Source of the DNA: Hormiphora californensis
Lineage: Eukaryota; Animalia; Ctenophora
Assembly: GCA_020137815.1 (NCBI GenBank)
Contig: CM035352.1
Coordinates: 8,556,001 to 8,620,000 of the forward strand
Length of the DNA stretch: 64,000 nucleotides
Direction of reading: 5' to 3'
Shown here in pieces: positions 22,420 through 46,394 of this stretch; position 1 is the first letter of the stretch; each line of letters opens with the position of its first letter. A model generated the notes under the pieces. The model was not told where the DNA came from and did not search any database. It worked only from the letters and a program-made list of their open reading frames with translations. Both the position numbers and the translations under genes were made by a program.

Positions 22420-22435
22420 AATTCAGTTGATTTAA

Positions 22436-23825: not shown

Positions 23826-24102
23826 TTAATCAGCATTTAATCAGTCTTGATGGGCCATGCAGCTGTAGGGTTAGAAAGTTTACGATTATATTGGATAGAA
23901 AATGAGTTGAGGAAAACAGGATTAAGTTTAAACTGAAAGGTATAAAACAGAAATTAAATAATAAATGTTTACAGTCCTATAGCGACAAATTCCATTCTGA
24001 AATCTAGATTAAAAGAAAAGTTTCTAAAAACAAATAACAAATAAAAAGCTCAAATAAATAAAAAGAAACTAAAAGATTGATGTGGCATTTAAGCCAGTAG
24101 GA

Positions 24103-25864: not shown

Positions 25865-26172
25865 CCAACTATACGCAAGAAATTAGTGATTAGGCCATAA
25901 CACAATAATAAACATGGGACAAAAGATTGAAGAGATTCAAGATAAAAGGCTCAATAAATATACTTCAATGAATGCATGACATGCCAAAATAACTTAATTT
26001 ATATTTTACACTGAACTTACAACAATACAAGAAATAATATTTTATCTGAATAAAACAGTAGTATCACATGACGATTAAAAACTGAAAGACGGCGTGCAAA
26101 TGATGCGTGGAAATAAAAACGCTTCCTATAAATAAGCCCGTTGCTCAAATAAGATTATCCGATGGTTGCCAT

Positions 26173-26388
26173 TATAGGGATCCCTAAAAAAGTTCAGTAT
26201 TTACACAGCGTTTACACCAGTGCACTGTGATTGGCTGAAATTTCTGATGGTGAAAAATTTAAGCCAATCACAGCGTCGGAATCGAAGCGTGGGAAAAATA
26301 TTCTTCCCGCGCTACCGTGGGAAAAATCGTAATGGCTTAACTGGTGTAAACGCTGTGTAAATACTGAACTTTTTTAGGGATCCCTATA
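26173..26388. mobile_element. MITE with ~49-bp perfect TIRs, flanked by TATA
   Basis: TATAGGGATCCCTAAAAAAGTTCAGTATTTACACAGCGTTTACACCAGT and its reverse complement. Confidence 0.85.
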
Positions 26389-26512
26389 GCGACTAATAAT
26401 TGCTCCTTCATAAAATATTCTAAATGACTAACACAATTTTGTGTATATATATGTAACCATCTTGTATTTAAACTAAGTAAGATGAAACAGAAAAAAATGA
26501 TGTGAAAGTGAG

Positions 26513-28423
26513 TTAATCAACCGACTTAGTGAGTGATTCAAGTTCTTCGCGGCTTTCCCCAAACATTTTTAAGCAGTCCTCCGCACAATTGGGAAGGGGT
26601 CGTCCCAAGGTTTCGGGAATGTTCCGCAAAAGGCCCATCGATATCATAAGACAAACCACGATAAACACGTAGATTATGGAGGGAGATATTTCGTTAACCA
26701 GGATCACTAACGGAGCAAGGAGAGACCCGACCCGAGCACAAGTAGAACAGGTCGACATTCCCACTGAACGAACCAGCGTTGGAAGGATCTCAGAAGTGTA
26801 GATGTAGAGGAGAGCAAAAACAGCCCCAGCAAACGCTCTTCCAGAAACAACCAGCATGGTTTTAAGCTGTGAAAGTTACCGCTGACAGAAATATGCTCCG
26901 TTTGAGGGACCGCAGTGAGGACAAGACAAAGTAAACCGAGGGACAAATATAACTGGGATGACTTTTGTCTGCCCATTGAACTCGCCTAAAAAGTAGAGGG
27001 AAATCCTTAACAGGGAAATCTGAGCAGCCCATCAGCATCATAACCAAATACTCATTCCCCAAGGTTCGCCTGCATTGAACTTCCAAGCCGTAAAAGCAGA
27101 TTGACACTGTAAACCAGCAAAAGGAAAAGTAGAGCAGTGATCGACGGAAGAATGGTATGCTCCAAAGAATTCCGAAACTCTGGCCTCGTTTTGAAGTCAG
27201 TTGACTGTCCGGTAGCACTGACCAACTGAACATTTCTCATTATAGGATAACCGTTGAACCTTCGCTAATCCTATTCAAACTAGTGATAGCAGTTTCGTTC
27301 CATTCCCTTGAGAACAAGCCAGTGTGGGGTCTCGGGCATGAGGAAATGAAAGATGACTCCAATAAACGCAAAAACAATGGCTGGAAGCGCCATTGTTTGC
27401 TGCCAACAGGGCGTCACCATGGCAACGAAGACCGGCTACACCACCTCCCATGGAAAAGGCAGCACTGCTCAACATGGCGGCAAAAGTGGCAACGGAAGCA
27501 GAGGTAAACTCGTAAAAGAGTACAAAAGAGGAGATGGAGATACCCCCGTGAAGTGCTCCGAGACACATTCTAACGGCAAGCAACTCTGAAATACTGCTGA
27601 CCAAACTACTCAATCCCAGGAAGATGATGTAAAGTAGGATCCACAGTTCCGTACTAAACTTTCTACCCATCTTATCCACTATTGAGCTTAGAGGAGAAAC
27701 GGCGAAGAAAAATCCGACAAAATACAGGGTCGTGCCCGAGGGAGATGAGATATTTGTTGTCGCAGTACAAATCAAACTCTGTGACGTAGTTACTGCGTTC
27801 ACTGGAGAATTCCCAGTCAAGTCCTCGTTTTCAAAGTGCAAATCATGTCTTCAGGAGGGTCCTGTGCTGACTTGCATTCTTCGGATAGACAGAAAACCTG
27901 AGAGAGAAAAACGAATTTACACTCAAGAGAGGTGATCTCACAGCTGCTTTTTACCGATAGTAGATGTTCGTGAATTGAGGTTGTCTATCTTGAGATAAAT
28001 GTATGTAGATTTGTGCGTCTGTTCTACAATTTGTAGTCTACACTCTACACATCATACCACATACCACACGCACACAATTGTTATGTTATATGTACACTTA
28101 TTGTACAATTGTACACTGCACTAAGCACTTATTGTACTAGATACAAATGTGTACTGAATAAGAAACTAACCTCTGGCAGGACAGAGAGACTCTGAATAAG
28201 AAACTAACCTCTGGCAGGACAGAGAGACTCTGAATAAGAAACTAACCTCTGGCAGGACTGAGAGACTCTGCATATGGAAGGTAACATAGCCACTAGCACC
28301 AGTTGCCAGGATACTTAGAGCAATCACAATCAACTGAAACCGACCCTTTGGGTTAGTATCGTTCAGACATTCCTGTATCGTTTTTTCAACAACGTCATCG
28401 TTCAAACTAACCGACTTGAACAT
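26513..28423 (-). pseudogene. SLC22-like copy B (exons 28423-28247, 27897-26513) with many frameshifts; pseudogene or assembly errors
   Basis: Paralogue of copies C and D, fragmented in the ORF track. Confidence 0.7.
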
Positions 28424-28612
28424 CCGACTGAAATGAAAAAAAAATGAACTAAAATATTAGTAGATCGATGTAAGCATAAGAAGTGAATCATGAAAACGCA
28501 AGGATGATCTGTTAAAAGAATTTAACTTATTAAATTAACATTAGCATAACCGTTTATCAATTTTAAATATATTCATTCAACCCGGAGACAAATCAGAAAC
28601 AATATATAACTT

Positions 28613-30120
28613 TCAATCCTCACTACTGATGCTATCAAGTAGATTTCTCATCTCTGTATCAGTTCTGTTTATCGGCTGCTGTACAATAGCATCCTCTAAC
28701 GTCAAGGGGAGGGGAACATCGAGGGTCTCAGGGGTGTAACTAGCGAGTATGACTGTCAATGTTAGGAGGGCAATGGGTACGATTAAGACTAGGATTGAGT
28801 TGACGTTGTCAAGGAGTAGGATAAATGGGGAGAAGACTGATGTAGCGGCTGAAGCCATGGTACACAGACCAATTCCCCGTGCTCTAAAGTGGGTGGGTAG
28901 GAGCTCAGCAGTATAGATGTAAAGTAGAGGGATCATTGTATCGGATATACTGTCACTAACTACCCCCAGTAACAGGTGCCCCGTGGTCCCTGGTTCGATC
29001 TTGACAACACCGTCCAGCAGTACCGCAACAGCAGTTACCAGTGATACAATCATCAGGGCCTTCTTCCGGCCAGTTACCTGGGCTAGTTTATAGACGAGTA
29101 ACTTCAAGGGGAAGTGCCATCAAGCCTCTATAAATGGGGAGAGAGAAGGCTTCACCTGGTGCACCTGCTGTAGGTAACACTAAGATAACAGGTAGCTGCT
29201 GAGAGCCATGCCACAGCCAGTTTGCAAAGTACAGGGCCCAGTTCTCGAAGTGTTTCGGTGGTCGACTCTGGTTCATTAACTTCTTTCAGCGAAACATTCT
29301 TGAGAAGGGGTCGACGATTTATAGAGGCAACTTCATTGAATGAGACAAGTGTCTGCAGTGTTCTTCCCTGGCTGTAGAACCAATAAGGGGATTCTGGGAT
29401 AGCTAGGTAGATTATAAGGAAGGCAGTTAGAGCAGCACAAATGGGGATATCAAATGTTGTTTGCCACTCGTCTCTATGTAGCCCTAGGTACGACATTAGT
29501 GAGCCTCCCAGGCTAAAACCAATCGAGCCCAGAGTACACAGAAGCCAGCCTGTGGCCTGTGATGTATATTCAAGACACAGTAGAAGACCAGCCAGGGACA
29601 ACCCACCATGCAGGAACCCAAACACAAATCTGAAAAGGAACACCTCCTCGAGGACTGATGAGAATCTCTGGAGGATAAGGGTTAGTAGGAGACCAGCAGA
29701 ATAGTAGACACCAACAGGTCTTCGACCCATCTTATCCACTAAGATCGCTGTCACGTAGACAGTCATAAAGAAACCAACAAAATATGCGGTTATCCCACAT
29801 GATCTCAGGTACTCGGATTCACAGACAAGTCTGTATTCTGTAAGCCAGTTAATTTTCTGTTCATGAAACTTCCATGATTTTTCGTCAAGGCTACAGAGAT
29901 CTGATCCATCTTTGAATGACGGTGAAGTCATTTCCGTGCACTGGGCGCTCATACACTCAATTTCTGGAAACATTGTCAACACTTGAAACTGAAACGTCAC
30001 TAGACCAAGTAAAACGTTGGTAATAAAGTAGAAACTGCCCATGTAAAAGTGGAACCGGCCACATTTTCCAGCCCTTTCAACGGCATCACCAATGGAAATG
30101 TGATCTTTTGAAGCGTTCAT
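28613..30120 (-). CDS. Divergent intronless SLC22-like transporter copy A, with an apparent frameshift near 29150
   Basis: INWLTEYRLVC, DKMGRR and IPESPYW in ORF 29152-30120; YIYTAELLPTHFRARG and PETLDVPLP in ORF 28613-29107. Confidence 0.75.
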
Positions 30121-30703
30121 AAGAGGATCTCAAACCTCTTTCGCCAACGGAGACCTTCTTCATAGGTCTGTAATAATTGAAATGTTTTAGGGATCGAGCT
30201 GGGAAGTGGGAGATAACGGAATGTGGTTACAAATTTGGAAATCGCAAAAAGAAATCACGAACACAAATTCTTAACTTTTTTATTTTATTTTCTGAGCTCA
30301 GAAATCAGCCGCGCAATTACAAACTACGATGCATTTTACGCCGCGCATTATTTAACTGAGCTGAGCTGAGCTTTCTTGATCTTGTTTTGTAAACTTTTTT
30401 TTGCCAGAAAAATTTCCCTTTTTGGTTTTTTTTGAAAAGCGCTGCCTTATCCCGCGGGGGCCAGCAACGTTTGCCAAGGTTTTTTTTGAAAATTCACTAA
30501 CCCCAACACGGATTGGCATCACTTTCCGACAGCCGAAGAGAAGCTGCCGAAGAGAGAAAGGGGGTAACCGTATGAAGAGTTAATTCCCTTTTTGGTGGTT
30601 TTGTGTGGTTCCCGCTATTTTTCTCCCTATTCCGACTTCCCTCTACCCTTTTTAACATGTTCAGGGCTCAAGTTATTTGTTAAAAAGCTTTCTTTTTTAC
30701 AGG

Positions 30704-33700
30704 ATGGAGTTTGTGGGAAGTGTGACTCACCCTACGCTAAGTGCTCAGAAATCTTCGCTGAAAGACGCTCCCTACTTGAGCTCCCTACGAATCCGGAAGC
30801 TCCAAAAGTATCTTAAAGAAAAGAAAATTGATGGATTGTTAGCAGTAAATGGTATAGACAGTCGCTACAGTCCAGATGCCCGTCATTTCATCAACTTTTT
30901 GCTCTTTGGATGCTCCGTGTATCGAAGCGGCAACTATACACGTCAGCAAACTGTGGTGGACATAGATGAGCTAGTGCTGATGGTGCGACAAGAGAAGGTT
31001 CACCTTTACACGAGCAGTGAGACATACGATGCCCTCCTTCCATTCCTCATCAAAATACCGGATCTTGAGATTCACTGTCTGGATCCTTCTCTTTCTGTTG
31101 ATGAGAACGTGGTAGAGGATCATAAAATATACGCCTTTATTTCCATGACGTCAAATGCTCCAAACATTGCCGTCCCCCATAGTGGGAAGAAGTTTGATGC
31201 GATGTCTCTGGAAAAGTGGCCTATTATTCAGGCGTATGCTTTAGAAAACTACGGTTCCAATGGGTTCTTTGGTCTCACTCACAATGTAATTCCTCTAGAC
31301 TTTCAAGATATCTATACGTCATTTGATCTCGGGTCTCTTAATCATCTTCTAACTGAAGTTGCCTCGCTGCTAAGGTACCAGTGGAATTTGTCGATAAGGA
31401 ACGTGGGTATCCAGCTGAAAAATGGGGTCACCGACCTTTCTCCGTCCCTTGATCCCATCAGGAGTTACTTGTCTCACGGTACCGGGGCAGAGAGTGTCCA
31501 ATTTGAGCAACAGAATCATCCGGTAACGGGGGCTCCTCTGTTTCTAACCATGTCCGTCAGCCAACCGGCCATGGTGTGTGGCAGAACGTATTTTGTTCAT
31601 TCCTCCTCCTCATCACCTGACTTGGTTACTCTGTCAATCATCTTTGATTCAATGGTTGCGACAACTCAGCGGTCAATCCAACGATTTGCATCAACTCAGA
31701 ATGCCGGGAAAATCCAGTCCTACTTTTTGAAAAAGTTTGCTGACAAGATCGGCTCAACTAAACACCCCATGCTGAAAACGATCAACCTGAAAACTCTCAA
31801 AATTACCGTTCAAGTGGGTGGATTTAACGTGCGTGGCAAACCAGTCGATCCCTCCAGTAAGAACGCTCTGAAGACTATCTCGGTTTCTATTTCCGGTATT
31901 ACCAGCACGGAGAAGCCAGGAGTAGTGTTGAAGCCTCTGGTACACTGTGAGACATTCATTGACTCTCACCTCCAGGTCGAGAATGGTGATAGCTCCGCTG
32001 ATGATGTCGAGAGTTTGGTGATTACCAATGTCATTCCCACGTATGTTCAATGGAACTCTACTTCTCCGGGGGAATCCGCCTCCTGTTCCATTCTTTCGTC
32101 TGATTTGTATGAAGGAAATGTAGTTGTTAGTGATGGTGAAATGTTTGTCACCTCACCCTTCTCAACTCCTCTCACTATCCCCCTCTCCGCTATAAAGGAA
32201 ATCAGGGTGGCCAAGAATGTAACATCTTCCATCTCCCTGTACATCGAGCACACAGCGGATTGCCTGCCACCCTTCTACAAACGGTTATGTTTGGTATTTT
32301 GGCAACGGGCCAAGGCATTCAAGTATGCCTCCGAGGTGCTCCTTCCCCTCCTCAAGGAAAGTGGTGTCAGCACAAACTCAGATGATCTACCTCCCGATGT
32401 AGAAATCCAGATATCTGCTCTGTCTAGGGAGGAAGCAGTGACACTGGATTGCAGTTATCCTACCCTCTCCAACTTTGCTCCCCACCTCATGCTCAGTTCT
32501 CATGGAAACTTTACCTACAACCAACGAGATATAAACCCATCCATGGTACCAGAAACAACTGACCCCTCTGTTCTGATCACCCTTCTGATCGGAATTCCAG
32601 GGTCGAACCAGGAGAAAATATGTTCCCTGATTACTGAGGAATGTCCGGAACAGCAGTTTATCGTCCTTCGTCAGCCCCTGACCGCCCCGGACCTTTACAG
32701 CACTGAAAACCTCCAAAAGTCCCTCAAGACACTGGCATCGCGGGGTGGTGATCCGCTGCGTGTGATTGTTATTGTCAGTGCTTACGTTTCCCCCGCTGAG
32801 GTCCTTTCCTCAATCATCCAACACCCGGACACCAAGACAAGGAAGGCGTGTCACGTGTCCTGTGTTAACACGTGTGTGGACCTCAGGAACGTGTTCTTGT
32901 GTAACAGGACGGTGTTCCCTAAAGTTCTCGAACAATGCCAGGAGGGATGGTCGAATAATATAATTGTTTCGGGGCAGAGCAAGAAATCAGGGGATGAAAG
33001 GTTGGCGACAATCCGGAAAATTAACTCGGAGTGCCATATTGTTGAGATGATTAGCAATAACTTCATATCGCAAGATGACCTTGAGGAGATTTGTGCACTG
33101 GATGCATTTAGCGAGCCTCCTCTCCCCATTTCCCGGCACCTCTCCTCGCCTGGATGGTATAACAAGGGTTTCAAAGATCGACCTGCCTTCCTAGACATCA
33201 CCCACCTCACGGTCCAGTTTGAAGGTGAGCTTTGCAAAGCACGTTTCATGTCCCACCTCAAGTCACTTCACCAGAAGGAGGGACGGGTGTTTGTAGACAG
33301 ACTGGCTATGAACGGATCCATCTTCTATCTGGGTGGTAGGACCAAGTTTACCGATGACAAATCCATTTACTCGGTAGAGTTCACTCCCCGCAGTGAGGCT
33401 ATCTCTCTGACAACGTTCACTAAACCACTCGCCCCGGGCACACAGAACTGTTTCATGTTCACGGGTCTGGGTCTAACAGAGGCCCAGGTAAAAACCTGGC
33501 TCCAGGGTTGTGTCTCCAGACCTCCGACCAAGAAATCTCCCCTGACCAAGTTCTCCCTGACTAAAGACGAGAAGGAGAGGTTGAAGGATGTGGCGAGCAA
33601 GTCTCCCCTTCCGGAGGGATGGTTTTTCAATGGAACCTACTACGTGTCGATGACATCGGGCAAGAGTACCGAACACCCCGTGTATGGTGAGTTAGTGGAG

Positions 33701-33790
33701 AAGTATGTGGCTGAGAAGAATTGTGAGGTAGAGAGATTTAACAAGCAGGTTGATGATTTTAAAATGTTGTCTCTGTTTGATGGGATTTAG
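30704..33790 (+). CDS. DNAAF9: Dynein axonemal assembly factor 9 (C20orf194/Shulin) homologue, intronless
   Basis: N-terminal DGLLAVNGIDSRY...INFLLFG...EKWPIIQAYALENYGSNGFF and C-terminal LPEGWFFNGTYYV match the recalled C20orf194 sequence; P-loop-like LIGIPGSNQE. Confidence 0.88.
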   Translation: MEFVGSVTHPTLSAQKSSLKDAPYLSSLRIRKLQKYLKEKKIDGLLAVNGIDSRYSPDARHFINFLLFGCSVYRSGNYTRQQTVVDIDELVLMVRQEKVHLYTSSETYDALLPFLIKIPDLEIHCLDPSLSVDENVVEDHKIYAFISMTSNAPNIAVPHSGKKFDAMSLEKWPIIQAYALENYGSNGFFGLTHNVIPLDFQDIYTSFDLGSLNHLLTEVASLLRYQWNLSIRNVGIQLKNGVTDLSPSLDPIRSYLSHGTGAESVQFEQQNHPVTGAPLFLTMSVSQPAMVCGRTYFVHSSSSSPDLVTLSIIFDSMVATTQRSIQRFASTQNAGKIQSYFLKKFADKIGSTKHPMLKTINLKTLKITVQVGGFNVRGKPVDPSSKNALKTISVSISGITSTEKPGVVLKPLVHCETFIDSHLQVENGDSSADDVESLVITNVIPTYVQWNSTSPGESASCSILSSDLYEGNVVVSDGEMFVTSPFSTPLTIPLSAIKEIRVAKNVTSSISLYIEHTADCLPPFYKRLCLVFWQRAKAFKYASEVLLPLLKESGVSTNSDDLPPDVEIQISALSREEAVTLDCSYPTLSNFAPHLMLSSHGNFTYNQRDINPSMVPETTDPSVLITLLIGIPGSNQEKICSLITEECPEQQFIVLRQPLTAPDLYSTENLQKSLKTLASRGGDPLRVIVIVSAYVSPAEVLSSIIQHPDTKTRKACHVSCVNTCVDLRNVFLCNRTVFPKVLEQCQEGWSNNIIVSGQSKKSGDERLATIRKINSECHIVEMISNNFISQDDLEEICALDAFSEPPLPISRHLSSPGWYNKGFKDRPAFLDITHLTVQFEGELCKARFMSHLKSLHQKEGRVFVDRLAMNGSIFYLGGRTKFTDDKSIYSVEFTPRSEAISLTTFTKPLAPGTQNCFMFTGLGLTEAQVKTWLQGCVSRPPTKKSPLTKFSLTKDEKERLKDVASKSPLPEGWFFNGTYYVSMTSGKSTEHPVYGELVEKYVAEKNCEVERFNKQVDDFKMLSLFDGI

Positions 33791-34523: not shown

Positions 34524-37500
34524 ATGGCACAGACCTTCCACCAAGAATACATGGCGGTACCTGCTGTTACCAGGACCTACACCACTGCATGTGTGCTCAC
34601 CACCATAGCAGTTCAACTGGACATCCTCTCACCATTTCAGGTATTATTATAGCGGGTCTATAATGGTGTGTGAGAGAAAATGGGGGAGGCGAATATACCG
34701 AGATTAATTTAGCTAATTCCTAATATATTTTCATCAGTTCTCTGCTCTCTCTCATTCATACGTTGCTGCTGCTGTACTGCTACTGGTACATTCTACTTCC
34801 TAGCTACCGTGTGTGTGCACCCTTTACCTGCATCGTGAATCAAACATCTGAATAGCTTGAGAGAGAGAGAGAGAGAATTTGATTGTTAACATAACTTGAT
34901 TTGTCAATCTGTGAATATGACGAAGACACGCTCTGCTTCTAAATCTGACCCTGTATCCAGCCCGATTCTTGAAATCTTTAATGATCCAGAAAGTGTCAAC
35001 ATCAGCTCGATAGAGGATTTGAAGAAACACTTTAACAGCCCTGCTAGTGTTGAGGATGTCCTCCTTGCTCTGTTTTGTATGAGTCGTCAGCAGCGTGAGA
35101 ATGAGATCCATCTTGAGAAGAAAGTAGTCAGTCTTACCACTGAAGTTGAGCGCCTAACTACTGATCTCGAGAAAGTGGAAGACAGGTTGCTTCGTTCCGA
35201 GGCGTATCAGGGAAGGAACACTGTCCTACTTGCTGGTGTACCCGACTCGACCAACGAGACCCAGAAACTGCTAGAGAACAAGGTTGTCACCACCCTCAAG
35301 CTCGCTGACCCTACCATCAGACCGGAACACCTTGGTATCGTACATCGGAACAAGGCCAAGCCTGCTGGTCCCCGGACGGTTACAGTCGTCTTCAACCGTG
35401 CCCGACAGAAAGACAACGTGATGAGGAAACAGGGGAGAAACAAGATGAAGAGGATCAACTGCTCGGAGACCTGCCCACCTACTTGTACTGACCACCGGGG
35501 AGTTGCAGCAATGCACCGACTATCACCAGCCCTGGCCGATCGCAAGAAGGAAATTGAGAATTTACCGAGTGTTGAATGGGTGTGCTTTTCAGGCCACCGT
35601 CTTTTTACAGTGTGCTATGACAAAGACAAAATTAAACACAACGTAATCCGAGCAAGTGATCTTGAAATGGATTAGTTGGCAGTGAATTTCTGTGTGTTAA
35701 GGAATGTGTTTTAATGGAATGTGCGTGAGAAATCTTCTTTACCTCCTGCACACATTTGTTCTTAAACTTGCTGTTAATTTCCCCATTTTACCCCCTTTAC
35801 CTGTTTCTATACCCTTGTTTTACCTATTCTACTTGTTTGACCCCTCTATCCCTTTTTAACCCCACTAACAATCTTTCTCTCTCTCTCCATTACTGCATGT
35901 CTGTTATGTTTTCATCGTGTGCTGACGTGGAGGTCTGGGCTGTGGTGGTGCTCCTGTGGCGATCTACTATCTTGAGGCTGGTGGGTGTGTCTGTCTCTTA
36001 CTATGTATCAGGTATTTCAATGGCCCTTCTAGTTATCTCGAACCCCTCTATTGTAAATCCTGGTCCTAGAAAACTCAAAGTTATCTTTGCCAATGTTCAG
36101 GGGTTGGTTAGTCCTGGTCATGTTGGATCAGCTGACCCTCCCTTGAATATGACCAAGGTCTATGAAATACAGGACTATGTTTACAGAAATGATATTGATA
36201 TAGTTATTTTTAATGAGACGTGGCTAAAATCTAAAATTGATTCTTCCCTAGTTTTCCCCCGTAACTATAAAGTTTTCCGTCAAGATAGAACTGGGTACAC
36301 ACACCCCCGTGACCCCAATAACCCTCTTAAGTTTAGGGGAAATGGGGGTGGAGTACTTATAGCCCATCGTGAGAATATTGATGTTACCAGTGTTCGTTTC
36401 TCGGGTGTTAGAGCTAGAGCCGAGTTATTAACTATCTCCCTTTCTTTCTCTTCTGGGAAGAAACTATGTGTTTCGACTTTCTACAGAGTCGGAAATTTGA
36501 GTGAGGATAATTTTCTTCAGTTTAAAGAACATTTTAATGCTATTTTCTCTCGTCGTAATGTTTGCAAGCATGTACTTGTTGGAGATCTAAACTTTCCCGG
36601 TGTAGATTGGCCTCTGTCCTATCCCCGCACCGGGATTGAAGACATTTTTCTGCGGTACCTGCTAGATGACTTGGGGCATAGTCAAATGATTAATACCCCC
36701 ACACATATTGGTGGACGTATTTTAGATCTCTGTTTTACAAATGATCCTGAGTGTGTAAATAATTTTGATATTCTTGATTCTGATGTGCTATGTTCGAGTG
36801 ACCACTTTCCTTTTACTTTCAATATTAACATGGACGTGAAAAATGTGAAAGAGGACCGACGTAAAGTGTTACTATTTGATAAGGGTGATTTTGAGAGTAT
36901 ATGTGCTGACTTGAGTGCCATTAACTGGACTAATGTTTTTACTGGTGACATGGAGTATAATGTTTCTGTTTTTAATTCCATCATCACTTCACTCATTGAG
37001 AAGTATATCCCCACTAAACTTGTTAAAAATATTGTCCTTCCCATTTGGTGGAGTAGCGAGTGTGAGAATGCCAGAACTAGAAAAGAGAATCTGCGTAAGC
37101 GTTATAAGAGTTCGGGTCTGAAATCTGATTATGACAATTTTAGTGCTGCTCGTTCTTATTTTAAAAATGTTTGTGATTCTAGAAGTAGAAATTGTCTTGA
37201 TATTGATGATACTGATAACATTAGTAAGAAGTTTTGGAGACAGGTGAAGGTAAACTCCAAATCTACTCGGATACCCAACATTGTTAATGATGGTGTGGTG
37301 TTCAAGTCAGATTCGGAGGGACAAGCTAACTTGTTCAACCAGCACTTTGTTTCTAATTTCTCTAGTCCTAGTAACTACAATATTGAGGAGACTGTTGAAA
37401 ACATTTTTGATGCTGGGGATTTAGCCTCTTATGAATTCAGTGGAAGTGAGATACACTCCGTTCTATCTGCCCTGAATGCTCGTAAGGGGCCTGGCCCTGA

Positions 37501-40500
37501 TGGTATCCATAGCATTGTATTTAAAAAGTGTGCTGGTGTACTTGCATATCCCCTATCCCTGCTCTATAACCAGGCCTACTTCACTAGTGACCTCCCGTCC
37601 ATCTGGAGATCCGCTAATGTAGTACCAGTCCACAAGTCAGGCGATAAAAGAGATGTCAGAAACTACAGACCTATTTCTCTTACTTGTATAGCTATGAAAG
37701 TTTTTGAGAGAATGATGAGTAACCGACTTCTTGACCTCTGTTTTGACAAGATTGATCGACGACAGCACGGTTTTCTCCCTGGGAGATCTTGTCTAAGTCA
37801 GATGATTTCTTTCACGGACACCCTCTTCCAGACTGATAACAACCGACTGACAACTGACATTATATATACCGATTACAAGAAAGCATTTGATAGTGTCAGT
37901 CATGATATCATCTTGGAGAAGCTTACATCCAAATTTGGTATCACGGGTAAATTATTGGGTCTTATTCGTGTTTATCTTATGGGCCGTACCCAAAGAGTTG
38001 CTGTTGGAGGTAGTCTCTCATCCCCCCTGGCTGTTGCTAGTGGGGTACCACAGGGGAGTATTATCGGTCCCCTCTTGTTTGTTCTGTTTATGAATGACGT
38101 GTATGACTGTCTCGAAGGTGATTGTGAGTGTCTTGTTTATGCTGATGATGTCAAGCTCTTTAATAAAATCACTAGTTTTAGAGATCACTTAGACCTACAA
38201 CTCAGTATTGATAACTTGTATCGATGGTCAGTTGATAATAAGATGACTCTACACCCCCTTAAATGTAAAGTAGTTTCTATTTGTTCTTCTCGTTGTGTGC
38301 AAACCTTGGGTCAACTTCCTTTCTTTTATATGAACTATACATTGAATGGAGTTGATCTTATTGGTGTTGACTCTCAGAGAGATTTGGGTGTTTTTGTGTC
38401 ACAAGATTTGTCATGGAAATATCATATAGACTTTATACTTCAGCAGTTCACTGACCGTTTCAACATGCTTCGTAGAACTGTTCACTTCATTAAGAACATT
38501 CACCAGAGACGTATACTGTACCTCTCTCTTGTTAGGTCCCTTCTTGAGCACTGTTCCCAGGTTTGGGCCCCCACTCAGGTGGGTCTCCGTGTAAAGCTTG
38601 AGGCAGCTCAGAAGAGGGCCATCAAGTGGGTGTATGGCGTCAATCCCATTGTGAGTTGGAGTGAGGAAATATATTATCTTAACTTATCCAACATTAGTAT
38701 TCTCCCTATTCACCTTCACTTTCTCTTTAATGATCTCAAGCTGTTCTACAAAGTTATTTCGGGTATTATAAATCTTGATCTTCCCCCTTATCTCTTTCTT
38801 AAGAGCCCTACTGACATCTCTTACCGAACCCGGGCTAACCGTGACATAATTGACCTTGTCGATTTCACCACGGTTGGCTGTACTGTTCAACCTCTGAGCT
38901 CTGCCTTTAGAAACAGCTTTTTTGTCAGAACTTACCCTAAATGGAATGAACTCCCAGTCGAAATCAGACAATCATCTTCCCTTGATATTTTCTCGATTGG
39001 ACTGAAGACCCGCCTATTTAAATCTATTACACCCCCTGCTCCCCCTTAACTTTCCCAGCTACTGCAGACACACCACTCCAGCTCTCCTGCCTCGGACGCC
39101 GCCATTAGACCACCTCCCTCCTCTTCAGCGCACCGTTATCTTCTTCTACCAGCATGCAGTGAAGGGTTGAGAGTTGAGAACTGTTTTTATAGGTTTAATT
39201 AAGAACAATTTTTAATATATATTTTTACTCTGGGTGCCACCTGTTATAGTGGACTGACTCCATGTTGGTGGAGCCCGGGACGTGCGGCTTTATTTATTGA
39301 CATTTATTTATTGTATATAACGTTCTAATTTTTCCATGATAAAAATATATCCCCCAATACACAGCTAACAATATTGTTTCAGTTGTATTTCAATCACTCG
39401 CTTATCTTGAAGAAATACCAGCTGTGGAGACTCTTTACCAACTTTACCTTTTTCGGGACGATAGGATTCAACTTCATATTTAATATGATATTCACCTATC
39501 GCTACTGTCGGATGCTGGAAGAGGGTTCTTTCAGAGGGAGAACAGGTAATAAGTGTGATATTGTATACAGGGTGTTCATGTGGGATACAGGGTGTTCATG
39601 AAGGATCTTTAATGAACACCCTGTATGATACTCTCGTTACCTTTCCAAAACGTACTGACAGAAGAGCCAAATTACTTACTAACGACTCTCCCCTTCTCTA
39701 AGCCGATTTATAACTCTCCCCTTCTCTCTCAGCGGATTTCATTATGATGTTCCTGTTTGGTGGGGTAATCATGACAATAATTGCATGTTTTGTCAACATG
39801 GTATTTCTTGGGCAAGCCTTCACGATCATGTTGGTCTATGTGTGGAGTAAGAGGAATAGGAACGTCAGAATGAACTTCTTTGGCATGCTCAACTTCAACG
39901 CTGACTATCTCCCCTGGGTAATTTTATACATTTCATATCAGTTTGTTATTAATAGTTGTTTTGTTCAAACTCTTTTATAACAGTCTAACTTGGCAAATTA
40001 ATAGCAATCAAACAACTAAATTTAAACAACCCTGAGATTATCTCAGTGAGATATTATCGGTTTGTTATTGTTACATTTGACCAGTTTGCTATTTTGTTGT
40101 TTCCATTGTTCACACCAGTTGTGTGGATATGATACACTACCCCACCAGTCTCTACATGTCACCTTGTTCAAACAAGTTTGTCATTTTACGTGATTTACAC
40201 TGGAAATAGCTTTTACATGCATTATCGATATATTGTCCATCAGTCTGACTCTAAACTCTAAATGCATGATGATCACATATTCTCTCTTCTGTTTAATCTC
40301 TCTCAAATGTTTTCTCAGTATTATATCTCTATGTATCTCCATTCCTCCTTTCTCCCTTCCCATTCACGCCAGTAAGCTTGTGACAATCCCTCTCTCTGTG
40401 TTGAGGGAGAGAGAGCCTCACTTGTAATAAGAGAGTCAGACTCTTTAACACACCTGTGTATTGTTGGCGTGATTCCAACAACAAGGCCACCTGTTTGTTG

Positions 40501-41382
40501 CTATCCTCCCTTCCTAACAAGTTTCACTCCACCTTATATTAGTTCATGCCATAGTCCCCAGTCCCGGGACGTTCCCTCCCCGGGTATATAATCCTAAAAG
40601 CTATAATATGGTACTCTTGTGTCTGTATGTGGTCGGCAGAGCTCGACCTCAATATTCCTCAATCTTTGTCCTCACACCTCTTGTGTATCGGGTCACTGTT
40701 GTTTAGTGTGCAGCTGTTGTTGTTATTTGTTCCCAGTTTTCAGCAACCAATATATATTTCTTGCTCGGTCACGAAATTACCCCTCCGGGCGAGCCCCTCA
40801 ACTGAAATGGGTGACTTTGTAACCCCAATATATATTTCTTGCTCTCTCTCTCAGGTGTTGTTTGGGTTCTCTCTCCTGCTCGACAACTCGGTCCTAGTTG
40901 ATCTAATGGGGATTACAGTGGGACACATCTACTACTACCTAGAGGATGTTCTACCCAGGATCCAGGTAGGAGAATTAGAAGGGCCTCTTTTATATGTCGA
41001 ACAAAGCAAAATGGGCCGGGGCCCGGGGGTATTTTTTGCCTCGCCGCTAGTCGTTACTGTTTCATAACATTCCTGCACATACCATTCCTGCACCTTATAT
41101 CCATCTCTCTAATTCCTCTTATCCATCTAATTCCCCTGATCCATCCATCTATCTAATTCCTCTCTTATCCATATAATTCCTCTAATCCATATCTCTGCAC
41201 AGGGAGGAATGAAGGTGTTGCGAACACCCCGGCTCCTGAAACTAATGTTTGATGAGGCGAGTGAGGAATACGAGGTTGTGGCCGATGAAACAGCACCTCA
41301 ACCAGGTGGTTATAACTGGGGTGAGGGCCCCCAACAACCACAACAACCCGCCCCCGCTCAGGAAGGGGATGGAGAGGAGTAG
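34524..41382 (+). CDS. DERL2: Derlin-2/3 (exons 34524-34640, ~39382-39545, ~39733-39916, ~40855-40965, ~41203-41382)
   Basis: Spliced: [27 protein letters not shown]...SPFQ/LYFN...QLWRLFTNF...[19 protein letters not shown]...VYVWSKRN...YLPW/VL...[18 protein letters not shown]...PGGYNWGEG. Confidence 0.93.
34917..35675 (+). CDS. LINE ORF1p (coiled coil + RRM-like domain)
   Basis: Heptad-rich [26 protein letters not shown] followed by [16 protein letters not shown]...IVHR...TVTVVF. Confidence 0.8.
   Translation: MTKTRSASKSDPVSSPILEIFNDPESVNISSIEDLKKHFNSPASVEDVLLALFCMSRQQRENEIHLEKKVVSLTTEVERLTTDLEKVEDRLLRSEAYQGRNTVLLAGVPDSTNETQKLLENKVVTTLKLADPTIRPEHLGIVHRNKAKPAGPRTVTVVFNRARQKDNVMRKQGRNKMKRINCSETCPPTCTDHRGVAAMHRLSPALADRKKEIENLPSVEWVCFSGHRLFTVCYDKDKIKHNVIRASDLEMD
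35897..39049 (+). CDS. LINE ORF2p (APE + RT) with hydrophobic N-terminal leader ending in NPGP; start codon uncertain
   Basis: [46 protein letters not shown] and YADD motifs; no internal stops. Confidence 0.95.
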   Translation: MSVMFSSCADVEVWAVVVLLWRSTILRLVGVSVSYYVSGISMALLVISNPSIVNPGPRKLKVIFANVQGLVSPGHVGSADPPLNMTKVYEIQDYVYRNDIDIVIFNETWLKSKIDSSLVFPRNYKVFRQDRTGYTHPRDPNNPLKFRGNGGGVLIAHRENIDVTSVRFSGVRARAELLTISLSFSSGKKLCVSTFYRVGNLSEDNFLQFKEHFNAIFSRRNVCKHVLVGDLNFPGVDWPLSYPRTGIEDIFLRYLLDDLGHSQMINTPTHIGGRILDLCFTNDPECVNNFDILDSDVLCSSDHFPFTFNINMDVKNVKEDRRKVLLFDKGDFESICADLSAINWTNVFTGDMEYNVSVFNSIITSLIEKYIPTKLVKNIVLPIWWSSECENARTRKENLRKRYKSSGLKSDYDNFSAARSYFKNVCDSRSRNCLDIDDTDNISKKFWRQVKVNSKSTRIPNIVNDGVVFKSDSEGQANLFNQHFVSNFSSPSNYNIEETVENIFDAGDLASYEFSGSEIHSVLSALNARKGPGPDGIHSIVFKKCAGVLAYPLSLLYNQAYFTSDLPSIWRSANVVPVHKSGDKRDVRNYRPISLTCIAMKVFERMMSNRLLDLCFDKIDRRQHGFLPGRSCLSQMISFTDTLFQTDNNRLTTDIIYTDYKKAFDSVSHDIILEKLTSKFGITGKLLGLIRVYLMGRTQRVAVGGSLSSPLAVASGVPQGSIIGPLLFVLFMNDVYDCLEGDCECLVYADDVKLFNKITSFRDHLDLQLSIDNLYRWSVDNKMTLHPLKCKVVSICSSRCVQTLGQLPFFYMNYTLNGVDLIGVDSQRDLGVFVSQDLSWKYHIDFILQQFTDRFNMLRRTVHFIKNIHQRRILYLSLVRSLLEHCSQVWAPTQVGLRVKLEAAQKRAIKWVYGVNPIVSWSEEIYYLNLSNISILPIHLHFLFNDLKLFYKVISGIINLDLPPYLFLKSPTDISYRTRANRDIIDLVDFTTVGCTVQPLSSAFRNSFFVRTYPKWNELPVEIRQSSSLDIFSIGLKTRLFKSITPPAPP

Positions 41383-41628: not shown

Positions 41629-41805
41629 TACAATGTTGAAGCAAGTGGTTATCATGTATAAAATATTATTTTGACTAATTTGATAATTTCAGGGTTGCAT
41701 GCTGACTATGCATTTTACAAAAACTGCCATTCTTTTTACCGTACAATTAACTAATTAATTAATTAATTAATTAACAAACCTTCCTTCTCTGTTCTAGCTT
41801 CCATC

Positions 41806-43475
41806 ATGTACGGTTCCCTTATTATGCGGACCCTTTCCCGGTCCCTAATCCCCTCCTCTGCTCGACTTCTAACTACGGGTGTTCCCCCTACTTCCTTCAA
41901 CCCGGAGACCTACCTCCGGTTCCCCCAGTTTCTCCACGAGATAAATACAAACCTGACCTCGTCTGAACGGAACAAGGGGAGGCTGGTGTACTCTAACAAG
42001 TGTGTCACTGTAGAGGGTGAGGCTCAGGAGACTATGGATGCACTAACGGAGGGAGATAGGGCTGATTTGAAACAGCTCAGTGTGGCATGTAAAGGACTGT
42101 TCTGGCAGAGCGAGATAGACTACACCTGTGTGCCCTGTGTGTTTGTGATGGAGGGAGAGTTTACGGGTGAGAAGTTCCTCACGTCAATCGGCCTACCAAA
42201 ACTATCAGTCAGCGTGGAAACACTTTCCGGTGGTAAGTGTTGAGAATAATACCGCGCGAATTGTCGTATATAACATGGCGGGATGGTGGTAAGTGTTGAG
42301 AATAATATCGCGTGAATTGTCACAATACACATGGCGGGATGGTGGTAAGTGTTGAGAATAATATCGCGCGAATTGTGTCAATTCAACATGGCGGGATGGT
42401 GGTAAGTGTTGAGAATAATATCGCGCTAATTGTCATATATAACATGGCGGGATGGCCGAGTGTTGAGAATAATATGGCGCGAATTGTGCTAATACACATG
42501 GCGGGATGGTGGTAAGTGTTGAGAATAATATCCCGCGAATTGTCGTATATAACATGGCGGGATGGTGGTAAGTGTTGAGAATAATATCGCGCGAATTGTC
42601 ACATTTAACATGGCGGGATGGTGGTAAGTATTGAGAATAATATCGCGTGAATTGTCACATTTAACATGGCGGGATGGTGGTAAGTATTGAGAATAATATC
42701 GCGTGAATTGTCGCATTATACATGGCGGGATGGTGGTAAGTGTTGAGAATAATATCGCGTGAATTGTCACATATAACATGGCGGGATGGTGGTAAGTATT
42801 GAGAATAATATCGCGTGAATTGTCACATTTAACATGGCGGGATGGTGGTAAGTGTTGAGAATAATATCTCGCGAATTGTCACATTTAACATGGCGGGATG
42901 GTGGTAAGTGTTGAGAATAATATCGCGTGAATTGTGCTAATACAACATGGCGGGATGGCCGAGCGGTCTAAGGCGCTGGTTTTAGGCACCAGTCCTCCGG
43001 GGCGTGGGTTCGAATCCCACTTCCGTCAATTTTTTGTTTTGTTTCTCAACATTTTCCAATAATTTATCCCGTATAATTTATTAAATATTTTATTTTAAGG
43101 CCGAAATCCCCTTCCCAACTTTTTCTTTTCCCTCAGAGTATTTACAGAAGTTGCCCATTATTAGCTACCAAGGAGAAGATGCCATGAATGTTTACAGGGC
43201 TCCACTTGATATCATTGTGAAGACCGTGGGAAAATTCGACCAGGTAAAATAATTTCCAGAGAATTTTATTGTCCATTTCTTCCTGGGTGAGACGCAGAAG
43301 TTCACGCTAAACATTCACACCTCTTTATCACACCTTTATCACACATCTCTTTACTCTACAGGTATTCCATGTGACTGTGGGAGAGGGAACCATCAATCCT
43401 GTCCTCCAATTCTTTGTCGCCAAAACGGCCAACGATAAAGTTCTTGGATTTATGTCTGCTTCCGTGAATGAGTAG
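41806..43475 (+). CDS. Putative mitochondria-targeted NuiA-like (nuclease A inhibitor) protein, 215 aa; exons 41806-42232, 43137-43243, 43362-43475
   Basis: GT-AG exons splice in phase (427+107+114 nt). The N-terminus is Arg/Ser/Leu-rich and lacks acidic residues. The C-terminal ~135 aa resemble NuiA: LKQLSVACKGLFWQSEIDY ... FFVAKTANDKVLGFMSASVNE*. Confidence 0.7.
42229..42958 (+). repeat. 13-copy tandem array of a ~56-bp unit (GGTAAGTGTTGAGAATAATATCGCGTGAATTGTCACATTTAACATGGCGGGATGGT)
   Basis: Units start at about 42232, 42288, 42344, 42401, 42456 (variant), 42511, 42567, 42623, 42679, 42735, 42791, 42847 and 42903. Confidence 0.95.
42949..43028 (+). tRNA. tRNA-Leu(UAG), intronic
   Basis: Acceptor stem GGCGGGA/TTCCGTC, D-arm GCCGAGCGGTCTAAGGC, anticodon arm CTGGT-TTTAGGC-ACCAG, long variable arm, T-arm GTGGG-TTCGAAT-CCCAC, followed by an oligo-T Pol III terminator. 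Confidence 0.95.
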
Positions 43476-43862
43476 ATCTACCCCGAGACAAGAAAGAGAG
43501 AGACATTCATCTTCAGCAGATTCATGCTGTTTTCTCATGTGGGGATTTCTTACTAGAACTCTAGTAAACTATAAGAGAGAGAGAGGGCCCGGGGGAGAAA
43601 AGGATTATATATTCCACATCTCTCCCCCTATTCCCGGAGCTAGTAATTAGCTCGATTTAGACACTACATTATTCGTTACACAGCAGTCTACCGATTGGGA
43701 AGGGTTATAACACCCCCTCCCCATATACAACTACTGAGTAGAGCTGTGTCAACATGAAACGATCAGTTGATATGTAAGGCGTTTAAGCTGGTCGTGTTAA
43801 AATCTGGAAAGAGATTTGTCAAAAATAACAAAAAATATCTTAATTCTTATTTAAATATTTAA

Positions 43863-45165
43863 GGGTACACCTGGCATTTTTCATCATCGAGTGCCCAACC
43901 AAATGACTTCACCAGGGTTTAGTTCATACAAAATGGACCTCAAATATGCAATTTTAGCCCTAAAGTCGAATTCATATTTTTGCTACAGCCTATTTTCAAA
44001 GTGGCGTTTTTTCAATTTTTGTCGGAATTTTTAACCTCAGGACCACTTTTTTTGAGATAGAAACATTAAATTCTTGGAATTTGAAGAGAATATAAAGGTG
44101 AATAAGCCCAAAGAAGGATTTTTGAAATGGAGCTTATTTCTGGCCATGAGAACGGTTTACTTTTTTGTTTCTTTGACACGCTGGCTGAGAATGTTCCCAT
44201 GCTTCATTAGAGATGAAAATCTGGAAATAGTTGCTCAAAACGATTATCTATGTGGCCCAAAAATTTTGGAACTTTTCCGCCAAAGATGTGGTGTATAGAG
44301 CTTGTTTTGTGAAACCCGTCATTTTGAAAAAGAGGGAAAATCCCTGTATCTCAAAAACAGATAATTGTAGAGACCTGCGACCAAGCTTAATCGATTCAGA
44401 AGGTCCGATTTTGGGGGGGTCTTCTGAGAGACATTTTGCTCCTACTCCAACCGTTTTTGCTGTAATTGCGAAAAAGGTATCAGCAAGTAAGGGGGAAATC
44501 AGCCCGAAGCAGGCTACTGGAATAGAGTTGTTCCCCCTTTTCATAGAATTGGTTTTTTGCAATTACAGCAAAAACGGTTGGAGTAGGAGCAAAATGTCTC
44601 TCAGAAGACCCCCCCAAAATCGGACCTTCTGAATCGATTAAGCTTGGTCGCAGGTCTCTACGATCATCCGTTTTTGAGATACAGGGAATTTCCCTCTTTT
44701 TCAAAAAGACGGGTTTCACAAAACAAGCTCTGTATACCACATCTTTGGCGGGAAAGTTCCAAAATTTTTGGGCCACATAGATAATCGTTTTGAGCAACTA
44801 TTTCCAGATTTTCATCTCTAATGAAGCATGGGAACATTCTCAGCCAGCGTGTCAAAGAAACAAAAAAGTAAACCGTTCTCATGGCCAGAAATAAGCTCCA
44901 TTTCAAAAATCCTTCTTTGGGCTTATTCACCTTTATATTCTCTTCAAATTCCAAGAATTTAATGTTTCTATCTCAAAAAAAGTGGTCCTGAGGTTAAAAA
45001 TTCCGACAAAAATTGAAAAAACGCCACTTTGAAAATAGGCTGTAGCAAAAATATGAATTCGACTTTAGGGCTAAAATTGCATATTTGAGGTCAATTTTGT
45101 ATGAACTAAACCCTGGTGAAGTCATTTGGTTGGGCACTCGATGATGAAAAACGCCAGGTGTACCC
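43863..45165. mobile_element. Second Kolobok-like foldback element (TTAA TSD), related to 22436-23825
   Basis: TTAA|GGGTACACCTGGC ... GCCAGGTGTACCC|TTAA; arms of about 610 bp; shares the GATTCAGAAGGTCCGATTTTGGGGGGGTCTTCTGAGAGAC block. Confidence 0.87.
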
Positions 45166-46394
45166 TTAATCGTCTGTTACAGTTTTGTTTTAGAAGCTTT
45201 ATTTGTGCTACGTGTGTAGCTACATGTGTTTTTTAAGGACACGAGAAAAGTATACTATAGTTAATGTAGTCTTGAGTTTTAACTTTATCTAAAAACTGGT
45301 TTGTTTCACAATGAATTAAAGCCCCCTCCCCCGCTATCATTATATTCACTACAATGTGCTCATTTCTTGACCAAACCCCACGTTTTATGCAGAAGCAGGG
45401 GTCGAGCAAGGCAAGTAGAAGCAGTGGGGCAGCAGGCAGAACATGACCTTCCCTTTCTGTTTCAGTGGAGGGAGCGAGCCAATAGGACTAGCACGCGCAG
45501 GTTGATAAACAGTTGAGTATGGTAGTGTCAGCTATGTGGTGTGCGCGGCACAACTCTCAACACACGTTTCACAGGTAACAACAACTTGTTATTGTTGGTG
45601 CGCACACGCGAAATAAGTTTTAATGCGATGCAAATGAGCGCGCGTTTTAGAAATTGACGCGCGCTCACGGTGAATCTTCAAATAAAAATTTCAAAACCTT
45701 TTTTTTGTTTTTTTTTGTTTTAGAATTTTCTTAGAAAAGCGTTGAAAAGCGCTGCCTTATCCCGCGCTGCGCGTGGGCCAGCAACGTTTGCCAAAGAAAA
45801 GCGCTGCCTTATCCCGCCAGCAACGTTTGCCAAGAATTTTCTACTCAGCACAACCGCACACGTGTTCCTTTCGCTCAGCACTGAAGGACAGCACTGGCAA
45901 TGAATTCCATTCTTCCAGTGCTCGGAACGAGCTCAGGTTATAAAAATGCTAATTCCGCTGAAAATTTTCGGGTTGCTTCGCCCTCTCGACCCCCAATAGG
46001 GCTTGCAGCACGTGGGCCCTGTTCATGGGGGCTCTGCCACCTACACGCTCCGCCCCTGGTCCCCTTTGTGGGGGCTCTGCCCCTATCCTGGTTATCCTGG
46101 ACCTACACTCGCGGACGCGGCTAAAAGCTGCGTACCGGCCACCGCCCCTGCACTGATGGCAGACTGGATTTGTTTTGACAGACTATTTTTATTGATGCCT
46201 TCCGGCTTTCGTCTTACCAAATTATCTATTTTTGCGAAACCTTTAAGTAGTGTAGAGACGTGGAGAATTGTATCTTACTGCTTGTTTTCCTACCTGAACC
46301 GTTTCACTATATCTTTTGAGGCGATCTACTAATAATATAATCACTTAAGGCATGTGGTTTAAGTAACAGAATGTAATCATCAACAAACCCCGCA

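Follow-up and report, generated by a model that had tools for sequence, protein, structure and literature searches.

The 64-kb window analysed here (64,000 nucleotides of the ctenophore Hormiphora californensis, assembly GCA_020137815.1, contig CM035352.1, positions 8,556,001 to 8,620,000) contains a three-exon gene for a 215-residue protein whose residues 80–215 are homologous to NuiA, the nuclease inhibitor of Anabaena/Nostoc PCC 7120. We propose that this protein was inherited from a pre-animal eukaryote, is mitochondrial and inhibits a nuclease of the EndoG family (NucA-type ββα-metal enzymes), a combined reading that we consider moderately probable and in which the partner is the part that we infer. 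EndoG and EXOG, conserved mitochondrial nucleases with functions in cell death and in the upkeep of mitochondrial DNA, are plausible targets.

The initial annotation had described three in-phase exons encoding 215 amino acids, and this structure was confirmed: both introns start with GT and end in a pyrimidine-rich AG acceptor; the spliced frame comprises 215 codons followed by one stop (Table 1). Splicing is also seen in RNA. Contigs of four public runs (X1–X4) were compared with window positions 43035–43900; X1, from study P1, is RNA only by its presumed library type, and X2, from study P2, is an oligo-dT metatranscriptome. The 118-nt GT..AG intron 2 is precisely absent from the X1 and X2 contigs, and the ends of these contigs that are unaligned before 43136 correspond to the 3' end of exon 1, with no single alignment spanning junction 1; both junctions are thereby represented in two of the four runs, from two studies. 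The X3 contig covers exon 3 only, with an unaligned stretch that corresponds to the 3' end of exon 2, and the X4 contig is spliced and derives from a more distant relative. A Logan protein of the same length (P0014, 215 aa) differs from the window product at 7 of 215 positions. Read-through records place intron 1 (P0002, P0037) and intron 2 (P0039, P0041) at the positions found in the window gene. Of 15 candidates, the first protein search retained six proteins, among them a model from Pleurobrachia bachei (P0001; 95% identity to the window product over the matched part) and one Mnemiopsis leidyi protein; Bolinopsis microptera has a member in a cluster of the same family, and a profile search added three sequences with 44–45% identity (P0007–P0009). 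The latter are taken as ctenophore because the related transcripts L004 and L005 have spliced-leader-like starts and intron 2 lies at the same place (P0039). A further word-based protein search returned no additional relative, tblastn of P0009 against plasmids gave only matches with E values of 6–9, and none of 63 candidate stretches of viral contigs contained a relative. The gene is real, expressed and ctenophore-wide.

Homology of the C-terminal part to NuiA, which had been claimed from the sequence with NuiA motifs that agree with the PCC 7120 protein, is borne out by orthologues that pass the Pfam threshold, by fold matches and by an end-to-end profile match. With exon 1 by itself, the top Pfam match is PF07924, at 13.8 bits (E 0.073) and thus below the gathering cut-off of 22.1 bits. 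The cut-off is passed by the orthologues P0007–P0009 (30–33 bits, profile positions 3/4–130) as well as by two proteins from outside the ctenophores, one filed under Syssomonas (P0045) and one eukaryote-like Logan protein (P0047), so that the homology of the window protein holds by transitivity. For an AlphaFold model of P0001 built from five ctenophore rows only (predicted local distance difference test score, pLDDT, 63), the only Foldseek match under E 0.001 was NuiA (2O3B_B, E 1.8e-4), with 1J57 second; in a structural alignment with NuiA, this model reached Z 8.0 (root-mean-square deviation, rmsd, 3.5; 113 residues aligned), with Maf1 lower at 6.1. The model of P0014, computed with 33 bacterial rows and on that account biased towards NuiA, had a pLDDT of 82 and matched NuiA in Foldseek with E 6.9e-6; its residues 80–215 superimpose on NuiA residues 1–135 (Z 12.0, rmsd 3.2, 127 aligned). 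Searched against the PDB at E 10, a profile of the ctenophore proteins and the two outside eukaryote proteins (A4) found only 1J57 and 2O3B_B (E 5e-5 and 8e-5), the matches reaching the last residue, and HHalign of the same profile with NuiA gave 93% and E 2.9e-7. Neither of the ctenophore-only profiles, A2 and A3, found NuiA among the PDB sequences (HHalign E 0.0045). The PDB matches of exon 1 and of these ctenophore-only profiles (antibody light chains, a prenyltransferase) were rejected as chance. In a representative-only fold search, Maf1 (Z 6.0 and 5.6) came ahead of the nuclear magnetic resonance NuiA chain 1J57 (Z 3.8) because the crystal NuiA chain is not in that set; the crystal chain wins when it is included. 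Atlas look-alikes of the Bolinopsis protein fall in NuiA/NuiA_2 clusters from bacteria and fungi, with feature scores below 0.9 that make them leads only. On sequence grounds we regard the window protein as a divergent NuiA variant.

Conservation in the domain is densest in the loops that align with the nuclease contacts of NuiA. The roles of NuiA Glu24 and Asp75/Trp76 as nuclease contacts were reportedly described by Ghosh in 2007. The C-terminal Thr of NuiA is described as binding the catalytic Mg2+ of the nuclease (PMC2790893; PMC5587815). Counted over eight ctenophore proteins, invariant positions make up 9 of 10 in contact loop 1, all 7 in contact loop 2 and 5 of 9 in the C-terminal strand, together 21 of 26 as compared with 22 of 108 for the remaining domain positions; these regions align with NuiA Ser23-Glu24, Asp75-Trp76 and Thr135. 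The Ser of the Ser23-Glu24 loop is invariant. The following residue, 103, reads D, D, D, D, G, E, E, E in the eight ctenophore rows; Glu is found in the window allele, in P0007–P0009, P0045 and P0047 and in all 33 bacterial rows, which were picked as full-length. The statement that the Glu of the SE motif is kept therefore stands for the window allele and fails for its nearest orthologues, which have Asp (P0014, P0001–P0005) or Gly (Mnemiopsis P0006); judged from the alignment, Glu103 is a variant within a mostly-Asp lineage and a weak argument for this lineage. In loop 2, the invariant Ser152-Tyr153 aligns with Asp75-Trp76 in alignment A8, whereas the HHalign-based register is shifted by one, so that the match of Tyr153 to a Trp, which 30 of the 33 bacterial rows retain, depends on the alignment. 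Seven of eight ctenophore rows stop where NuiA has Thr135 and the eighth runs one residue further, which agrees with the earlier observation that the C-terminal position is retained with Glu in place of Thr. Terminal Glu is present in five of the eight (one with an extra Glu), i.e. in all five of the Pleurobrachia/lobate branch, in which it has become fixed. The other three (P0007–P0009) end in Thr, as do P0045, P0047 and all 33 bacterial rows; of 119 complete short bacterial open reading frames, some from duplicate loci, 109 have Glu-Thr as their last two residues. The deeper-branching P0007–P0009, P0045 and P0047 retain both Ser-Glu and terminal Thr.

The N-terminus had been likened to a mitochondrial presequence, and a simple composition test of N-termini is in line with this. 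The window presequence has three Arg, no Asp or Glu and an amphipathic moment of 0.66, and 13 of the 14 family N-termini examined are similarly Arg-rich and acid-poor (2–4 Arg, at most one acid) and amphipathic; the exception, the gene model P0001, probably has a wrongly placed start. In residues 1–29 of the ctenophore alignment, no more than 2 of the 29 positions are invariant, and the P0014 model has low confidence over residues 1–35; presequences vary freely in sequence. The protein is likely mitochondrial, as far as its N-terminus can tell. The segment between presequence and domain, residues 30–79, which the initial annotation had not set apart, has 21 of 50 positions invariant in the eight ctenophore proteins, and model confidence is good from around residue 41 onwards; it may confer partner specificity or mediate oligomerisation. 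Taken alone, this segment is only weakly similar to that of Syssomonas, 36 of 1000 shuffles scoring equally high, and P0047 gives no match.

With respect to origin, a HMMER profile search of 1.84 billion representatives at E 0.001 returned 16 matches: 13 of the ctenophore family, mostly fragments placed there by similarity, together with P0045, P0047 and a Vibrio RTX adhesin (P0046, E 5.7e-4) that was dropped as a repeat artefact. No bacterial NuiA was among them. P0045 (EP00128_P005308, 234 aa, search E 6.8e-5) is filed under Syssomonas multiformis, an opisthokont, in EukProt and has the same layout: its N-terminus is rich in Arg, and a further segment stands between this and a NuiA domain that scores above the Pfam cut-off; P0047 has a long Ser-rich N-terminus. 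Syssomonas is a unicellular close relative of animals. For comparison, a bacterial set was assembled from 68 loci retrieved by searching with the PCC 7120 protein and from genome samples (112 rows scored); PF07924 was found in 17 of 401 genomes of the phylum of Larkinella, 23 of 201 of the phylum of a cyanobacterium, 89 of 301 of a cyanobacterial class and 0 of 14 controls. A domain-only ctenophore hidden Markov model scored P0047 at 40.6 and P0045 at 31.9 bits, as compared with a best of 23.2 and a median of 8.6 for the 112 bacterial rows. Eukaryote rows fell on one side in all four quick tree builds (Shimodaira–Hasegawa-like approximate likelihood ratio support 96, 99, 99 and 94), and the grouping persisted after removal of the long bacterial rows and P0047; the rebuilt trees drop ten rows, two long bacterial ones and eight near-duplicates. 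The proposal that this animal lineage acquired a bacterial gene finds no support in these data: the closest relatives outside the ctenophores are eukaryotic, have an N-terminus of targeting-like type already and in the trees join the ctenophore proteins and not the bacteria sampled, and there are NuiA-like clusters in fungi as well. Given these eukaryotic relatives with targeting-like N-termini and the fungal clusters, a bacterial origin likely lies far further back than the ctenophores. We regard vertical descent from a pre-animal eukaryote as probable. No homologue was found in other animals, at a search sensitivity that barely reaches Syssomonas.

Considering these results together with the known action of NuiA, a hypothetical course can be outlined in which (i) the three exons are spliced into the message for the 215-residue protein, as observed in RNA; (ii) the Arg-rich N-terminus would be imported and cleaved to give a mature chain of about 190 residues, located by default in the matrix or at the inner membrane; (iii) residues 80–215 would adopt the NuiA α/β fold indicated by profile and model, with the chain end placed as in NuiA; (iv) the last residue would bind the catalytic Mg2+ of the nuclease while loops 1 and 2 occupy the groove for nucleic acid and so keep substrate out, in the manner of NuiA bound to NucA; (v) in the Pleurobrachia/lobate branch, Glu would have replaced the terminal Thr, its carboxylate acting as metal ligand and adding charge; (vi) the purpose would be to shield mitochondrial DNA and RNA from the nuclease in healthy cells. 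Since the terminal Glu would supply both ligand and charge, the Glu24-equivalent may have been free to relax to Asp or Gly. EndoG is described as the mitochondrial NucA homologue at the inner membrane, and EndoG and EXOG are placed at the inner membrane or in the intermembrane space, acting on mitochondrial DNA (PMC2790893; PMC2275078; PMC5915074). A brake on EndoG/EXOG would be the simplest role for a NuiA homologue in the same organelle whose contact loops and chain end are under selection.

Several observations weigh against this proposal. The window lineage has diverged and stays below the PF07924 cut-off: four of the six close ctenophore proteins match at 13.7–18.2 bits (P0001 13.7, P0006 18.2) and none passes, and P0014 has no PF07924 match at E 0.1. 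At the contacts themselves, residue 103 is Gly in Mnemiopsis, the NuiA Asp75 position is Ser in the window lineage, and the terminal residue at the Thr135 position is Glu215 rather than Thr. Segment 30–79 lacks a NuiA counterpart, which hints at another partner. EndoG is reported mainly from the intermembrane space or the inner membrane, whereas a plain presequence on a protein with no evident transmembrane anchor (highest hydrophobicity over 19 residues, 0.51) suggests the matrix. No NucA-like nuclease gene was found in the 64-kb window at E 1, the presence of EndoG/EXOG in ctenophores being assumed. As to ancestry, the trees are quick searches of 141 columns with bacteria drawn from Cyanobacteria and Bacteroidota and without fungal rows; long branches meet in them, with a warning in three of four builds. 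P0047 as sole query scores Nostoc NuiAs slightly above P0045 (33.4 versus 29.7 bits). For Syssomonas, the record consists of a single protein from the transcriptome of a predatory protist, for which prey contamination is possible.

The main rival takes the protein as mitochondrial and derived from NuiA, with EndoG inhibition lost and the loops and segment 30–79 now binding another metal enzyme or the mitochondrial RNA or translation machinery. We rate this as rather unlikely, although it would accommodate the Asp or Gly at the Glu24 position and the terminal Glu of the window branch, the strong conservation of a segment absent from NuiA (21 of 50 positions invariant), the likely matrix location as opposed to the intermembrane space of EndoG, and a fold weakly shared with the polymerase repressor Maf1 (Z 5.1–6.1, 4–10% identity). 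It accords less well with the Ser-Glu and terminal Thr retained by the sister ctenophore proteins, Syssomonas and P0047, with a fixed chain end and conservation on the very loops that align with the NuiA nuclease contacts, and with a NuiA match well above that to Maf1 (Z 8.0 versus 6.1 and 12.0 versus 5.6).

Two further rivals concern descent. The gene may have arisen once in a protist lineage, presequence included, and have entered ctenophores by eukaryote-to-animal transfer; the patchy distribution fits this, the absence from other animals would be accounted for, and five of nine reported Mnemiopsis transfers are traced to non-animal eukaryotes (PMC6005172). We nevertheless hold such a transfer to be unlikely: the named nearest relative is an opisthokont closely related to animals, a case in which the same paper treats vertical descent as possible, and loss in other animals is simple too, with divergent orthologues liable to escape a search in which even P0045 reaches only E 6.8e-5. 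Horizontal transfer of a bacterial nuiA into the ctenophore stem, with introns and presequence gained there and Syssomonas, P0047 and the fungi served by separate events, we consider quite unlikely. In its favour, no sponge, cnidarian, bilaterian or choanoflagellate record was among the 16 profile matches, gene transfers into ctenophores are documented (PMC6005172), bacterial nuiA is frequently plasmid-borne, the grouping of eukaryotes could reflect long-branch attraction, and the likeness of the N-terminal segment is weak for Syssomonas and undetected for P0047. Yet on the domain alone the eukaryote homologues score above every sampled bacterial NuiA, P0045 is equal in length and layout with residues in common within the extra segment, and the grouping survives the dropping of long bacterial rows and P0047. 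That the protein instead neutralises NucA-type nucleases of bacteria, prey or intracellular microbes is very improbable: orphan nuiA genes do occur in bacteria (a NucA-like neighbour within the fetched flanks of 3 of 19 Bacteroidota versus 83 of 103 cyanobacterial loci), but a conserved mitochondrial-type presequence leads to a place that foreign nucleases rarely reach, and strong purifying selection on the contact loops suits one constant partner.

Measured against known systems, the protein that we propose as a mitochondrial nuclease inhibitor shares with NuiA (PF07924; PDB 2O3B chain B, 1J57) the α/β fold, the domain length and chain end, a Gly-Leu-x-x-x-Ser-acid loop, a second loop of aromatic/acidic type whose register depends on the alignment, and a net acidic domain. 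It differs in its low identity (18–24%), its presequence, a 50-residue extra segment and spliceosomal introns, in the terminal Glu for Thr, and in the Glu24 position, which is Glu, Asp or Gly in ctenophores. Because it falls short of the Pfam cut-off and lacks the terminal Thr, we file it as a divergent eukaryotic variant and not as a plain NuiA member. In contrast to NucA–NuiA pairs, for which 86 of 122 bacterial loci have an adjacent nuclease gene, there is none beside it in the window; an adjacent cognate nuclease is not expected in a eukaryote. P0045 and P0047 resemble it in a targeting-like N-terminus, a segment with a Pro-x-Phe-Leu motif and a NuiA domain that extends to the last residue; they differ in their 19–24% identity and in having kept Ser-Glu and terminal Thr. 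Fungal NuiA-like proteins (PF23151 NuiA_2 and mixed PF07924 clusters) likewise have a eukaryotic NuiA fold, and in some of them, 190–240 aa long, the structural match runs into the extra segment. Unlike fungal NuiA_2, the ctenophore proteins have no PF23151 match at E 1 and P0045 and P0047 none at E 0.1, and a conserved second start before the domain is missing; such a start had been considered and was rejected, Met78 being present in only two of eight ctenophore rows. In its proposed role, the protein resembles Drosophila EndoGI (PDB 3ISM), an EndoG brake that contacts the sphere of the active-site metal. EndoGI is described as a helical tandem-repeat (HEAT-like), nuclear protein known only from Drosophila (PMC2790893), whereas both ctenophore models form a single α/β domain and a mitochondrial location is predicted; the initial annotation's remark that the Drosophila inhibitor is unrelated to NuiA fits this difference. 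The sheet-and-helix arrangement is also found in the RNA polymerase III repressor Maf1 (Z 4.5–6.1). Maf1 is taken here as a look-alike in fold, with 4–10% identity and without a Pfam Maf1 match in any scan, and it ranks below the NuiA crystal chain.

Among the bacterial genes collected for comparison, those of Bacteroidota (L072, L077, L080–L096) are mostly orphans, 3 of 19 loci having a NucA-like gene in the fetched flanks. Some cyanobacteria (L113–L125) have frames of 290–450 aa with two weak NuiA-like repeats and ends in Trp-Thr, Trp-Ser or Cys-Thr, a tandem NuiA variant. One genome titled 'uncultured Acetobacteraceae' (L015/G002), whose class sample overlaps cyanobacteria, carries a Nostoc-like nuiA, and its title is probably wrong.

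Table 1. Features of the NuiA-like gene and of its first intron; positions refer to the window.
Feature	Position	Strand	Length	Remarks
AG acceptor	41796..41797	+		Preceded by a pyrimidine tract; 8 nt upstream of ATG; from sequence
Exon 1	41806..42232	+	427 nt	Codons 1–142 plus 1 nt
Predicted mitochondrial presequence	41806..41892	+		Residues 1 to ~29
Conserved eukaryote-type segment	41893..42042	+		Residues 30–79; absent from bacterial NuiA
NuiA-homologous domain	42043..43472	+		Residues 80–215; across all three exons
Contact loop 1	42094..42123	+		Residues 97–106; Glu103 (42112-42114) aligns with NuiA Glu24
Intron 1	42233..43136	+	904 nt	Phase 1
Tandem array	42229..42958	+		In intron 1; 13 copies x 56 bp
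tRNA-Leu(TAG)	42948..43029	+		Nested in intron 1; ARAGORN
Exon 2	43137..43243	+	107 nt	Carries contact loop 2
Contact loop 2	43151-43171	+		Residues 148–154; exon 2; aligns with NuiA Asp75-Trp76 loop
Intron 2	43244..43361	+	118 nt	Phase 0
Exon 3	43362..43475	+	114 nt	Glu215 codon 43470-43472, then TAG
3' untranslated region	43476..43862	+		RNA-contig coverage; X1 contig reaching 43862

At the 5' end of the gene, the AG acceptor, which also comes after an AT-rich stretch, is likely, from its sequence context, a trans-splice site for a spliced leader or the end of an intron in the 5' untranslated region. Orthologous transcripts (L002–L005) start with AT-rich leaders in which TGAG ends 1–10 nt before the ATG. 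The published ctenophore spliced leader ends in AATTTGAG (PMC8527503), and the leaders of all four transcripts resemble it, those of L004 and L005 ending in AATTGAG. The latter two represent a divergent variant of the spliced-leader-like start. No copy of the spliced leader was found in the 64-kb window. A second Met stands at residue 8 and may be the true start codon. Downstream, no canonical AATAAA occurs in 43476–44000.

The unit of the tandem array in intron 1 links the donor of that intron with the initial bases of the tRNA gene, and the array looks like the product of a deletion that fused both intron ends, followed by expansion. It contains 12 GTAAG donor copies, the first of which is the one used in the RNA contigs. 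The tRNA gene itself lies about 110 nt upstream of exon 2. In a lobate-like record (P0013, P0052, P0053) the same tRNA, read as peptide, stands immediately before exon 2, for which reason the nesting of this tRNA seems to have been conserved among ctenophore lineages, in a view that is at the level of peptides and not of DNA. Past the gene lies a 1.3-kb palindrome (43859-45169) with arms of 617 nt that are 98% complementary and separated by a 77-nt gap. The X1 and X3 RNA contigs diverge from the window at 43862, both into one alternative sequence, and owing to this shared departure the palindrome is likely a polymorphic insertion of the foldback or miniature inverted-repeat transposable element type in or just past the 3' untranslated region.

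Upstream on the same strand, a Derlin (DER1) gene (~39700-41382, +) ends 423 nt before the NuiA-like gene; given the short gap and the trans-splice-like acceptor, the two genes could be co-transcribed. An open frame at 35729-39049 (+) encodes the endonuclease and reverse transcriptase of a long interspersed nuclear element, and the long open frame at 8626-11769 (+) has a similar start. The single open frame at 30656-33787 (+), of more than 1000 aa, matches the domains of DAAF9 (dynein axonemal assembly factor 9). Several tandem open frames at ~20700-30100 (-) are presumably copies of an SLC22/MFS organic-cation transporter.

A eukaryotic NuiA was not found in the literature among the titles and abstract openings listed, a search that leaves aside the supplements of a compendium of horizontal gene transfers (PMC13342648); the words 'nuclease' and 'inhibitor' are absent from the main text of the Mnemiopsis transfer paper (PMC6005172). 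NuiA is described as the Anabaena inhibitor only (PMC13522737; PMC5758888), and the paper on the EndoG/EndoGI structure does not settle whether EndoG has inhibitors in organisms other than Drosophila (PMC2790893).

In summary, we present the gene as a good candidate for an EndoG-family inhibitor, likely mitochondrial and likely older than animals. If this is true, the ctenophore protein would be the first NuiA-type inhibitor in an animal, as far as our searches show, and would provide a small natural protein for testing against EndoG and EXOG, a question that is directly testable in Mnemiopsis. As a more speculative scenario, which is possible but doubtful as a whole, a NuiA–EndoG pair resembling a toxin–antitoxin system was present in the mitochondria of the common ancestor of fungi and animals, and its brake was kept in fungi, Syssomonas and ctenophores and lost in all other animals, with EndoGI re-invented in Drosophila and the terminal Glu doing the work of both Thr135 and Glu24 in the Pleurobrachia/lobate branch. 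If inherited, the gene would be common to ctenophores and unicellular relatives of animals and apparently missing in other animals; it would bear on early animal evolution and on bacterial nuclease–immunity pairs as a source of the mitochondrial death machinery.

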